Notes under the pieces: model-generated
What the model saw: the letters and a program-made list of their open reading frames with translations, nothing else
Told to the model about the DNA's origin: nothing
The model's database searches: none
Assembly (NCBI GenBank): GCA_018396535.1
Contig: JAGTQC010000003.1
Location: 112,052 to 176,051, forward strand
Length of the DNA: 64,000 nucleotides
Source: Candidatus Bathyarchaeota archaeon
GTDB lineage: Archaea; Thermoproteota; CALKCG01; B24; DRYS01
Reading direction: 5' to 3'
Part shown: positions 58,141-61,496 of the stretch, piece by piece
Layout of the letters: every line of letters begins with the position of its first letter
How positions within the stretch are numbered: position 1 is the stretch's first letter
Translations under genes and position numbers: made by a program

Positions 58141-59037
58141 TTGAGTCTGAGACTTAGTCTTAATGCGTATAATCGATTAGAGGATGAGGACTTCAAAGTC
58201 TTAGCAGCTATAGAGTTAGGTATGTCTAGCCATGCCTTTACACCTGTAGACTATATAGCTAGAGTTAGCGGTCTGCATGAGAAGGAGGTATCCTATAGGC
58301 TACGTAAACTAAATAAGCTTAAATTAATCTTATCTCGTAGACTTCCACGAGTTGGGTTCGCTATAAATTCTATTGCATATGATTGTCTTGCTATACGTTC
58401 TATGGTTAAATCCGGTATCCTTAAAGCTATCGGTGATGCTCTAGCCGAGGGGAAGGAATCTGATGTGTATCTAGGCTTATCTCCTGAAGATATTAAGCTA
58501 GTCTTAAAATTCCTACGCATAGGTCGTACGAGTTTCAGACAGACGAGAAGATTGAGGAGTTATGTAGAGCAGCGTGATCATATATCATGGCTCTATCAAT
58601 GTAGATTAGCTGCTAATAAAGAGTACGAAGCTCTATCTATCCTATATAAGCTCAGGGTTAGAGTACCTAAGCCTATAGCTTGTAACCGTCACCTCATAGT
58701 CATAAGCTTCTTCGATGGTGTTGAACTAGCATTTTGTAAAGAAATCGAGGATCCAAGTAGTATTCTACTAGATATTTTAAGTGAAGTTAGAAGGGTATAT
58801 ACCGAAGCGTCCATTATACATGGTGATCTAAACGAGTATAATGTCCTTATATCATCTGATGGCGATATATGCATAATAGATTGGCCTCAGTATATAACGT
58901 TAGATCATCCTGGATCTATAGAGTATCTTAGAAGGGATATTAGGAATATCCTATCGTTCTTTAAGAGGAAATACGATGTAGATGTGGATTTAGATAGAGC
59001 GATAGGGTATGTTACAGGTTCATCTTCTATGCTATAG
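58141..59037 (+). CDS. rio2: RIO2 family serine/threonine kinase
   Basis: N-terminal wHTH, GKESDVY, RIGRTSF, IHGDLNEYN, IIDWPQ. Confidence 0.93.
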   Translation: MSLRLSLNAYNRLEDEDFKVLAAIELGMSSHAFTPVDYIARVSGLHEKEVSYRLRKLNKLKLILSRRLPRVGFAINSIAYDCLAIRSMVKSGILKAIGDALAEGKESDVYLGLSPEDIKLVLKFLRIGRTSFRQTRRLRSYVEQRDHISWLYQCRLAANKEYEALSILYKLRVRVPKPIACNRHLIVISFFDGVELAFCKEIEDPSSILLDILSEVRRVYTEASIIHGDLNEYNVLISSDGDICIIDWPQYITLDHPGSIEYLRRDIRNILSFFKRKYDVDVDLDRAIGYVTGSSSML

Positions 59038-60270
59038 GATATCTCCCCTCAGCTAGTTCCATACAGAACTTATCTATATTATCCAATTCTTCTGCTACAC
59101 AATTCTTCACATCGTCTTCTATCTCCTTTAAATCCACCCCATCTTCTAGGATTAGCTGTACAGCAGCTATCTTAGGCTCATTTATAGGCTCTCCTATCTG
59201 ACTTAGAAGCCAGACGTACACTTCCTGTAAGCCATTTATACTCGTATAGATTCTACTAGCTATCTTATGTGTAAGTACATTGTATATCTTACCTATATGG
59301 GAGACCGGATTCTTACCGGCTGCAGCTTCAGAACTTATAGGTCTATTAAGAGGTATAACCCCGTTTACTCTATTCCCCCTGCCTACTTGACCTGAATCAG
59401 CACTATCAGCTGAAGTACCTAGAACTGTAAGGTATAATCCTTCTATACCTCTCCCCATTCTATCTAGCGTATTCAGTTTAACTTCAAACTCATCGAAGTA
59501 TCCCTTCGAGGATAAGAGTTCTATAAGCTCTTCTAGAACCTCCTCCTTCCTCTTGAAGTAGGTGTATTCAGAATCTATGAATCTATCTACAAAAGCCATC
59601 GATACCGTAAGATCGAGTTTATCACCATATCTTAACCCCATCACTTTAACATCCTCCCCAGTTTCTGGATGCCTCTTTTTGAATTCCGATGAATTTAAGA
59701 ACCTTTCAACCTCGTATACTATACGTTCTACTCTACTCATAGGAGCGTAGCCTACAGCTGCGGATGTATCGTTAGCTTCTAGATATTTACCTCCTCTAGC
59801 GAATATATCTCTTAAAGCCTGTGATCCAGGTCTAATCTCTACCTGGTATACGACATGGGTATCTGGATCTATAAACCTCATATTATTCTTAAACCACTCC
59901 TTAGCCGCTGAGATCGCTATCTCATCTACAGGTATGGTATCACCATCTATACTCCATGTAGCTCTATCACCGAATACAAGCTTCATGGGCTTCTTTATAA
60001 TACCGCCGCCGAACCTATTTTCAGCTTCACCTGCAGCTAGTAGACCCTTATCTATGTTATGGTGTAGTATCTGCCCATACTTCTTCAGATATTCTAGACT
60101 AAGCTTGACGGATACGCTATCCATTATAGCATCGCATATATAGTCTGGGTGACCTAGGCCTGTGAGGGCTATCTAACCCAAGCGAGTTAGATAGCTTTCC
60201 TCTCGACTATCTCTACTTTACGCTTCTCTACTGGTTCTCCTCTCAATCTCTCGACGACTATTCTAGGCAT
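59027..60270 (-). CDS. mat: Archaeal S-adenosylmethionine synthetase (MAT), two exons: 60270..60197 + 60161..59027, 402 aa after splicing
   Basis: Exon 1 [25 protein letters not shown] joins [10 protein letters not shown]; [39 protein letters not shown]; the ORF track catches only the part from Met38. Confidence 0.93.
60162..60196 (-). other. Candidate 35-nt bulge-helix-bulge-type mRNA intron in mat
   Basis: GAGG-AA^A-GCTATCTAAC-TC-GCTT-GG-GTTAGATAGC-CCTC-AC^A-GGC; removal gives AGG AAA GGC CTA GGT CAC (RKGLGH). Confidence 0.85.
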
Positions 60271-60344
60271 ATCGCCCTCATGCCTCCATATATGATGATA
60301 ATTTAGCTTATACCTTTAAGCTTAAATATATTACTCTGTATACC

Positions 60345-60575
60345 TTAGGCTTCGAAGGATATGTAGAGTATATTGCTTCCCCTTATGAATATCCTCCCAT
60401 AGTTGACTTTAGGCTCTCCATCCCTATACTCTTCTGCATCGTCGAGTAGGAGATTCATGTAGGTGTCGCATGAAACTATAACACCAGAGTATTCAGCGTT
60501 ATTCTTAAGCCTAATTTTAACACGTGAATTTCTTAGTTTCGCTAATACATTCATCGGTTTAACTCCTGAAGACAT
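60345..60575 (-). CDS. Sm/LSm-like archaeal RNA-binding protein
   Basis: Sm1 (IRLKNN..YSG....DTYMNLLL) and Sm2 (IFIRGSNI). Confidence 0.92.
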   Translation of the reverse strand: MSSGVKPMNVLAKLRNSRVKIRLKNNAEYSGVIVSCDTYMNLLLDDAEEYRDGEPKVNYGRIFIRGSNILYISFEA

Positions 60576-60650: not shown

Positions 60651-61496
60651 TTAGCCTGGCTTCGAAGGTTTCTCAATAAGCTTCCTCTTAGATAGGATCT
60701 CCCCCTTACGGTTATGTGGTGATCTATAGACTGTATCCAACCCCTTCTCTATCTCTCTAGCTTCAGAAGCTTGTTTAGCAGCATAGCTCATAAGCTCGTG
60801 TGCTGCTGCTACTATCGATGTATATTCTACCCAATCCTCTATCTTGAAGCACCCCTCGACTGTTAGATCTGCAACTTTAGCAGCAGCTTCGTATGCGGCT
60901 ATAGCTTTAGCCTTAGCATACGGGTTAGTGAATTGACCCGCTTCTACTGCAACCTTCCTATCTACTACAATCTTAGGTAGCTTCAACTCCTCCCCCTTCT
61001 TCAAGTATTCTATCACTCTATCTAACTCAATCTGTATAACTCTGAATGCACCCGTAGCTGATAGAATTTTTATCAGATCGGCGTTATATATAGCCATCTC
61101 TACCGGATCTAGGAACTCTCTCCTAGCACCTATCATAGAATCTCCTAAGACTATTATGTATCCATAGCCCCCCTCATCAAGCTCTTTTACAATCCTCCTA
61201 GATGGTGCATCCGATACGATGATCGTAGGTATATTCGCATCCTTAAGTAAACTTCTCAATCTTCTAGGTCCAGGTAGACCTGCATTAGGACTTACCGCTA
61301 CAGCTAAATCTGGTTTAAACTCTATTAAGGCTTTAGCTACATCTTCTGCATCCTTCTCTCCCATCTTAGCACCGGAGGAAACGACTCTAACTACTAGATC
61401 ATCCCTATCAGCTCTCTCATCTAATAGATATTCTATCAGAGGGGATGAAGCTATACAACCAAGCTTACCGAAACCTACAGTTACAACCTCCTTCAT
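60651..61496 (-). CDS. mtd: F420-dependent methylene-H4MPT dehydrogenase
   Basis: KLGCIA, LLDERADR, SGAKM, SPN, DSMIGARREFLDPVEMA, NPYAKAKA, AAHE, RSPH. Confidence 0.93.
   Translation of the reverse strand: MKEVVTVGFGKLGCIASSPLIEYLLDERADRDDLVVRVVSSGAKMGEKDAEDVAKALIEFKPDLAVAVSPNAGLPGPRRLRSLLKDANIPTIIVSDAPSRRIVKELDEGGYGYIIVLGDSMIGARREFLDPVEMAIYNADLIKILSATGAFRVIQIELDRVIEYLKKGEELKLPKIVVDRKVAVEAGQFTNPYAKAKAIAAYEAAAKVADLTVEGCFKIEDWVEYTSIVAAAHELMSYAAKQASEAREIEKGLDTVYRSPHNRKGEILSKRKLIEKPSKPG

Follow-up and report, generated by a model that had tools for sequence, protein, structure and literature searches.

A candidate tRNA-type intron in the pre-mRNA of the only S-adenosylmethionine synthetase gene found in a Bathyarchaeota-labelled archaeal genome

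An interrupted SAM synthetase gene

The stretch of DNA analysed here (the window) comprises 64,000 nucleotides (nt) of contig JAGTQC010000003.1, which belongs to the 1.41-Mb, 93% complete genome assembly GCA_018396535.1 of a Candidatus Bathyarchaeota archaeon. Its minus strand carries mat, the gene for an archaeal-type S-adenosylmethionine (SAM) synthetase (MAT, PF01941), and the reading frames of the window reveal that this gene is interrupted by a 35-nt insert between ...VEIVERK and GLGHPD.... The 25 codons of exon 1 match PF01941 profile positions 2-26, and exon 2, whose frame reopens 35 nt past the Lys codon and continues for 377 codons to a stop at 59029..59027, matches the profile with E = 5.5e-157 at positions of about 25-394, so that the two pieces abut on the family profile. 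The length of the insert is not a multiple of three and it contains an in-frame TAA, and the coding frame is therefore disrupted, as it is by cbf5-type pre-mRNA introns. The unspliced frame ends ...KAI and then TAA, giving a product of 27 amino acids (aa), and no in-frame start codon is present between this TAA and GLGHPD. Removal of the insert yields a protein of 25 + 377 = 402 aa that contains ERK-GLGHPD and covers the whole Pfam profile. Because an A is found at both borders, the insert may be written as 60196..60162 or as 60195..60161, with an identical product. A first-pass annotation made from the letters of the window had described the MAT frame from ATG 60270, the insert within ERK-GLGHPD, the in-frame stop and the short unspliced product, and all of these statements hold. 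It had also proposed that cutting at AA/A and AC/A would give an intact 402-aa MAT, which agrees with the way that the exons adjoin on the PF01941 profile. The features of the locus are collected in Table 1.

Several observations indicate that the gene is in use. The assembly holds no second PF01941 match and no bacterial-type MetK (PF02773), and each of the relatives discussed below likewise gave one MAT match only. The ratio of nonsynonymous to synonymous substitution rates (dN/dS) for exon 2 is 0.06-0.07 between intron-bearing genomes, and no other lesion is found in the 377 codons of any of the 13 intron-bearing copies. Exon 1 comprises 25 aa ending VEIVERK in 13 sequences, with differences distributed over the three codon positions as 544:391:890, a bias towards the third. 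Since this is the sole MAT gene, is under purifying selection and offers no start codon between the TAA and GLGHPD, a functional enzyme needs the insert to be removed. On this reasoning from sequence, mat almost certainly needs splicing at the RNA level.

Table 1. Features of the mat locus, followed by the other candidate introns of the same genome. Positions are those of the window, except where a contig (C) is named.
Feature	Position	Strand	Basis or remark
A/T-rich TATA-like box AATATATTTAAG (putative promoter)	60321..60333	minus	read from sequence; some 50 nt 5' of the ATG, within the 74 nt that separate the ATG from the LSm stop
GGAGG ribosome-binding-like motif (putative)	60283..60287	minus	GGAGGC kept in two same-genus genomes
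Exon 1: ATG, 24 codons and first two bases (AA) of Lys-25	60197..60270	minus	reading frame, PF01941 match
Central helix, 5' strand GAGG, within the GAG AGG codons of ERK	60199..60202	minus	fold and alignment
5' bulge AAA; predicted cut between 60197 and 60196	60196..60198	minus	unpaired in minimum-energy fold and RNAalifold consensus; invariant
Candidate intron, 35 nt; in-frame TAA at 60187..60189	60162..60196	minus	frames, and homologous inserts in relatives
Inner hairpin, 12 bp (10 Watson-Crick, then U-G, C-G), loop GCUU	60168..60195	minus	fold; RNAalifold independently
Central helix, 3' strand CCUC, intronic	60164..60167	minus	fold and alignment
3' splice-site triplet ACA; predicted cut between 60162 and 60161; final A is the third base of the Lys codon	60161..60163	minus	A-N-A in all relatives
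Exon 2: third base of Lys-25, GLGHPD..., 377 codons, stop	59027..60161	minus	P0001; PF01941 profile
LSm protein	60345-60575	minus	mat neighbour
F420-dependent methylene-tetrahydromethanopterin (H4MPT) dehydrogenase (Mtd, PF01993)	60651-61496	minus	mat neighbour
Rio2 kinase	58141-59037	plus	mat neighbour
cbf5 candidate intron, 34 nt	C1:62867-62900	plus	between GGTL and D, codon G/AT
EF-2 candidate intron, 32 nt	C9:125139-125170	minus	between SQIR and NIGIIAHVDHGKT, just before the NIGIIAHVDHGKT P-loop
aIF5A candidate intron, 35 nt	C7:48986-49020 (L063:287-321)	plus	between SKPG and KHGSAK, hypusine lysine codon
Radical-SAM enzyme (PF04055) candidate intron, 21 nt	C11:41481-41501 (L064:382-402)	plus	between NPIE and KKPFYHYWPG

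Conservation, fold and splicing enzymes

The GTDB class to which the host belongs comprises 16 species genomes in four families (f1-f4), labelled Candidatus Bathyarchaeia at NCBI. An insert is present at the exact boundary between ERK and GLGHPD in 11 of these genomes, which fall in families f1, f2 and f3; mat is uninterrupted in both genomes of f4, and this part of the gene is unassembled in the remaining three. Public assemblies supplied two more copies, with inserts of 40 nt (SRR14241346) and 29 nt (GCA_038852745.1), bringing the total to 13 sequences. The insert lengths of the 13 copies (35, 34, 37, 31, 33, 33, 33, 32, 32, 29, 29, 40 and 29 nt) do not preserve frame, and the 33-nt inserts (G004, G007 and G011), which are multiples of three, all carry in-frame stops. 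In all 13 copies removal of the insert restores both the frame and ERK-GLGHPD. The codons used for ERK are GAGAGGAAA in every intron-bearing gene (13/13) versus none of 18 intron-less relatives, most of which have AAG for Lys.

The minimum-energy fold of an 81-nt segment contains the GAGG/CCUC helix, the 3-nt AAA bulge and the 12-bp hairpin with its GCUU loop, at -28 kcal/mol (z = -2.9), and two of 200 shuffled sequences folded equally well. It is mainly the comparison among relatives that places the structure beyond chance. GAGAGG-AAA is kept on the 5' side, and on the 3' side CCUC (CCUU in one genus and CCCC once) is followed by an A-N-A triplet in which the first and third positions are invariant and the middle position is C, A, U or G. 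The sequence of the hairpin varies freely across relatives yet remains paired, and nine of the ten aligned pairs of the inner helix have changes on both sides. In 11 sequences the central helix is paired in 100% of cells, two of them as G-U. For the same number of sequences 89.7% of all cells are paired, compared with 31-54% when the 3' partners were slid by 1-3 columns, and the covariation score was reached by none of 500 shuffles. The consensus computed by RNAalifold recovered the central and inner helices independently. Same-position inserts with compensatory changes, which had been put forward as a check on the intron, are therefore present in relatives.

We next consider the class of the motif. 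Both the minimum-energy fold and the RNAalifold consensus give the 5' half the 4-bp central helix, 3-nt bulge and inner helix that make up the H-B-h' criterion of archaeal bulge-helix-bulge (BHB) introns. On each strand a helix is followed by a bulge, with ACA following CCUC and exon 2 following ACA. Pre-tRNAs have the same order of helix and then bulge, their central helix being formed by the anticodon and intron sequence. On the 3' side, two unpaired exon bases (GA) lie opposite ACA, and beyond them only a U-G and a C-G pair, both constrained by coding, are kept across relatives, forming a 2x3 internal loop. RNAalifold offers as an alternative a long-range GUCG/CGAY pairing that reaches 30 nt into exon 2 and does not covary. 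A conserved outer (exon-exon) helix is not supported, as it would consist of either the two coding-constrained pairs or this non-covarying long-range pairing. The lack of a conserved outer helix means that the 3' site lies in a loop rather than a strict bulge, and that the motif is of a relaxed type (bulge-helix-loop (BHL), or HBh'). Judged by its sequence, the mat insert is a predicted member of the relaxed (BHL / HBh') class of substrates of the archaeal splicing endonuclease EndA and not of the strict hBHBh' class. Of the fold drawn in the first-pass annotation, the central helix, AAA bulge, 12-bp hairpin and GCUU loop are reproduced by the energy calculation, and its description of the motif as a relaxed BHB or BHL fits the 3' side, whereas the weak exon-exon helix that it had included found no support in the comparison.

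No Rfam family matched the intron region, and when a repeat or mobile-element origin was considered no other copies of the mat intron were found in its own genome. A self-splicing group I or group II intron, or an intein, was rejected, given that the inserts are 29-40 nt long, break the frame, contain stops and have no Rfam match.

The genome encodes two EndA (PF01974) paralogues. For the first, of 187 aa, the closest solved relative is the alpha subunit of the (alpha-beta)2 enzyme of Aeropyrum pernix (3P1Z_B, E = 7e-48), and its GKPRG aligns on the EKPRG that contains K44 and R46 of the Crenarchaea-specific loop. Mutagenesis and grafting of this loop have demonstrated that it, and K44 especially, enables the enzyme to cut BHL motifs as well as introns at non-standard positions (Hirata 2011, PMC3241643). 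The second paralogue, of 189 aa, has AAKYLV in place of the HAPYLV of alpha and so is without the catalytic His; it matches the non-catalytic unit of the Methanopyrus enzyme best. The RNA ligase RtcB is also encoded (E = 1.4e-179). The host is thus predicted to possess a two-subunit, broad-specificity EndA together with an RNA ligase, and to be able to cut relaxed motifs, much as had been expected when a crenarchaeal-type enzyme accepting such motifs was invoked for this insert.

The anatomy of the gene, the conservation and covariation of the insert, the single copy, the purifying selection and the encoded enzymes together make it very likely that the insert is a tRNA-type (BHB-like) intron, carried in the pre-mRNA of the organism's sole SAM synthetase gene. 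EndA cuts after the second nucleotide of a 3-nt bulge (PMC2738675). In the course of events that we infer, which extends to cleavage, ligation, exact cut positions and a circular intron, GAGG of exon 1 would pair with CCUC of the intron to form the 4-bp central helix, and the AAA bulge and stable 12-bp hairpin would define the 5' site (H-B-h'). The 3' site would be the A-N-A triplet directly after the central helix, in a loop that has no firm outer helix. The two-subunit EndA, with its catalytic alpha and non-catalytic beta, would cut each site after the second nucleotide (AA/A and AC/A), and RtcB would join the exons and probably circularise the intron. The spliced junction is predicted to be GAGAGGAAA joined to GGCCUAGG, also written GUCGAGAGGAAA joined to GGCCUAGGUCAC, and the product would read ...GAG AGG AAA GGC CUA GGU CAC... 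and encode the intact 402-aa MAT with ERK-GLGHPD.

Four points weigh against this interpretation. The strict hBHBh' motif is not formed, as neither the alignment nor RNAalifold gives the 3' site a conserved outer helix. The central helix has no double-sided covariation, which is explained by its 5' strand being coding, and in one further assembly CCCC introduces an A.C mismatch. When JGI metagenome contigs were scanned for the spliced junction, once in a genus-specific and once in a class-wide form, 0 matches were returned; neither scan had a positive control, and the result carries little weight. Finally, the 120 best public homologues include no spliced-type protein of these lineages.

Competing explanations

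A short, untranslated insert might also be skipped during translation. In programmed bypassing of the type found in phage T4 gene 60, the ribosome would leave the message at the Lys codon and land past the hairpin, and no RNA would be spliced. A stable hairpin does stand directly 3' of the take-off codon, and in five of the 13 sequences the triplet before exon 2 is AAA and so matches it. In the other eight, however, the would-be landing triplet is ACA, AUA or AGA, which mismatches AAA, and the codon after take-off is GCU, GUU, ACC or AUC and never a stop. In addition, the conserved pairing of CCUC with exon GAGG has no role in hopping, and the same layout is seen in cbf5 at a site for which experiments in other archaea have demonstrated splicing. 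We consider bypassing very unlikely.

Alternatively, the product that is annotated in the databases could be real, with translation restarting at an internal Met (MDSVSVKL...) to give a protein of 365 aa that is missing the N-terminal 37 residues and possibly works together with the 27-aa peptide. The public annotation of close relatives gives exactly such a 365-aa product (P0002-P0004). This protein would nevertheless be without ERK and GLGHPD, whereas 109 of the 120 best homologues carry GLGHPD in position and the remaining 11 have truncated or read-through N-termini. Moreover, the 12 codons upstream of the internal Met are conserved and open in all intron-bearing genes, exon 1 evolves as coding sequence, and the stretch from the intron stop to GLGHPD holds no in-frame start codon. 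A restart of this kind therefore has very little probability.

If mat were a decaying pseudogene, SAM would have to come from uptake or from an unassembled second gene, and an assembly that is 93% complete does leave room for the latter. This is difficult to reconcile with a dN/dS of 0.06-0.07 and with 377 codons free of any other lesion in 13 copies. The supposed lesion has also stayed at a single site in three families, even though its sequence has turned over with compensatory changes. The first-pass annotation had raised a second intact MAT gene together with decay of this copy as grounds for doubt, and neither was found: no further MAT or MetK is present in the assembly, and the relatives have a single MAT match each. 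We regard decay as extremely unlikely.

It is also conceivable that EndA cleaves the message and that the exons stay unjoined, so that the insert would be a site of decay or down-regulation similar to that of TSEN-initiated mRNA decay in yeast. Eukaryotic TSEN does cut some mRNAs that are left unligated (review PMC10485636). On this account no functional MAT would be made from the only gene, and the exact restoration of frame and motif in 13 copies, despite insert lengths of 29-40 nt, would be left unexplained, which makes cleavage alone exceedingly improbable. An assembly or sequencing artefact, for which we found no point in favour and which the first-pass annotation had named as a ground for doubt, has a negligible probability, as inserts occur in independent assemblies from different studies (NCBI metagenome-assembled genomes (MAGs) B24, SKYB62, QZM_A2, DRTY-6 and GCA_038852745.1) and in the Logan assemblies of SRR14241346, ERR12264623 and ERR12264627.

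Other interrupted genes, distribution and known systems

The whole genome was scanned for sites that combine a 4-bp helix with an inner helix and two A-N-A triplets and at which two open frames become joined; in looser versions of the scan, chance matches dominate. The scan returned mat and four more convincing introns, in cbf5, EF-2, aIF5A and a gene for a radical-SAM enzyme (Table 1), with exon identities confirmed by Pfam, in keeping with the earlier suggestion that further genes split by such hairpins might be found. A 72-nt candidate on contig C9 was rejected, as it is the spacer between two genes. The cbf5 junction splits the catalytic Asp codon after its first base, which is exactly the position of the published cbf5 intron, and it serves as an internal positive control. 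In aIF5A the first exon aligns with IF5A-like_N positions 4-35, and the eIF-5a OB fold falls in the second. The aIF5A insert is found in three genomes of the genus, with compensatory changes; f4 has a different insert at the same place and f2 and f3 have none, and so the distribution of this intron among families differs from that of mat. The radical-SAM insert is kept in f1, in f3 (genus g6) and in f2 (genus g5) and is absent in G003, and its central helix shows a compensatory change between families, CGAG/CUCG versus AGAG/CUCU.

In all five introns the order of elements is H - A(A/G)A - hairpin - H' - A-N-A. Each interrupts the first quarter of its gene, at or beside a conserved motif, the products being translation, RNA-modification or SAM-related proteins. 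None is a copy of another, and their gains and losses among the families are independent. One could go further and suppose that EndA-dependent mRNA introns are lineage-wide and are not neutral passengers, such that the supply of SAM and translation factors depends on or responds to the tRNA-splicing machinery as a prokaryotic splicing checkpoint, a tentative idea that we think unlikely.

A separate observation concerns the radical-SAM genes of G004 (contig C66, L093) and G012 (contig C5, L094), where residues 1-29 and 20-271 are about 1 kb apart in one 621-aa frame, suggestive of a large in-frame insertion that may be an intein.

The distribution of the mat insert was examined more widely. Outside the class, a search by pattern through 400 genomes of the phylum turned up nothing but false positives, and the matches that were rejected were a helicase (G358), bacterial-type MetK (G167 and G188) and chance ERK codons upstream. 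The same kind of scan over one genome per species, covering 185,579 species, recovered nine MAGs of the class, titled Candidatus Bathyarchaeota or Bathyarchaeia archaeon (B24, SKYB62, QZM_A2_bin_24, DRTY-6 and others), and one outlier. The outlier is a 2.7-kb contig, JAHWIT010000149.1 (L106), titled Candidatus Woesearchaeota archaeon YT3_932, in which the match occupies bases 485-539 of the minus strand. Its MAT is archaeal-type, has 31% GC and is 42-49% identical to all others, and its insert is 32 nt long and AT-rich, with the same boundary between ERK and GLGHPD and the same frame of GAGAGGAAA...CCUU-AGA. The insert was absent in 120 other genomes sampled from the order of this MAG, making it a singleton among 121. 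The site, where the ERK codons already supply half of the motif, could have favoured a convergent gain; a transfer, or mis-binning of the contig, could also account for the insert. Within the class, the MAT tree places the intron-less f4 inside, with weak support (80/79), and one gain plus one loss, or a gain after f4 split off, are equally compatible with this tree and cannot be told apart.

The gene order Mtd-LSm-MAT-Rio2 is kept in relatives. LSm and mat are adjacent in 22 of 30 loci, 11 of which are intron-less, indicating that the adjacency is an old synteny that is not tied to the intron. Boxes similar to the TATA-like element (AACCTTTAAT / TTTAAAAG) stand at an equal distance upstream of the mat ATG in relatives. 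The handling of the gene in public records deserves mention in its own right. In P0002-P0006, P0012, P0014, P0041, P0086 and P0105, intron-bearing MAT has been misannotated by gene callers, which either start the protein at an internal Met (365-372 aa) or carry the frame of exon 2 back through the intron, giving spurious N-termini such as MRGKP.... The first-pass annotation had predicted a truncated call, and public 365-aa products do indeed lack the His of GHPD. Since gene callers truncate intron-bearing genes, metabolic reconstructions and completeness estimates for these lineages can be wrong.

Full-text literature searches returned no report of an intron in an archaeal mat gene. A 5' untranslated region (UTR) case was described together with the statement that cbf5 was the only other mRNA with a BHB intron (Schwarz 2020, PMC7714728), and a 2023 review counted two spliced archaeal genes and expected more. 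In the literature that we searched there is hence one archaeal coding region, cbf5, that needs tRNA-type splicing, and one 5' UTR that is cut likewise. With a conserved intron in its only gene for making SAM, the organism would have its central metabolism tied to EndA and RtcB. With several more essential genes interrupted in this genome, the class looks like a natural system for the spread of protein-spliced introns into mRNAs, and such spread bears on ideas of intron origins.

Comparison with known systems shows both likeness and difference. The bypassed insert of T4 gene 60 resembles that of mat in being a short, untranslated, hairpin- and stop-containing insert in an essential gene, but its bypass is a ribosomal event that depends on identical take-off and landing codons and on a stop codon right after take-off, which mat does not have. 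In HAC1 and XBP1, a short mRNA intron is removed non-spliceosomally by a protein endonuclease, followed by a tRNA-type ligase. There, as proposed for mat, non-spliceosomal removal of an mRNA intron changes the reading frame; HAC1 and XBP1, however, are cut by IRE1 and not by EndA or TSEN, and form a regulated stress switch. RtcB acts in XBP1 splicing (PMC8718801).

Closer to EndA are the BHL / HBh' tRNA introns of Crenarchaeota, which are cut by (alpha-beta)2 EndA (PMC3241643) and share with mat one good bulge, a central helix and a second site in a loop; the mat insert differs in that it lies in an mRNA, takes its central helix from codons and has no tRNA body for positioning. Like the intron predicted in mat, the BHB intron of the Haloferax volcanii HVO_1309 5' UTR (PMC7714728) is cut by the archaeal splicing endonuclease from an mRNA, and not from tRNA or rRNA. 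It lies in an untranslated leader, has a canonical motif and is cut by a homodimeric EndA, whereas in mat the frame is broken and the EndA is alpha/beta. The cbf5 pre-mRNA intron of Sulfolobales and Desulfurococcales (Watanabe 2002; Yoshinari 2006; Yokobori 2009, PMC2738675) is similarly short, in the coding frame and relaxed BHB-like, with predicted cuts after the second bulge nucleotide and a host with two-subunit EndA, and it too stands at the codon of a catalytic motif and is patchy among lineages. For cbf5, an RNA-modification gene, splicing has been established experimentally, through spliced cDNAs and in-vitro cleavage in other archaea (PMC2738675), whereas mat is a central metabolic gene of a small Bathyarchaeia-labelled class in which splicing is predicted. 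The mat intron is predicted to work in the same way as the cbf5 intron, in what would be a new host gene and a new lineage.

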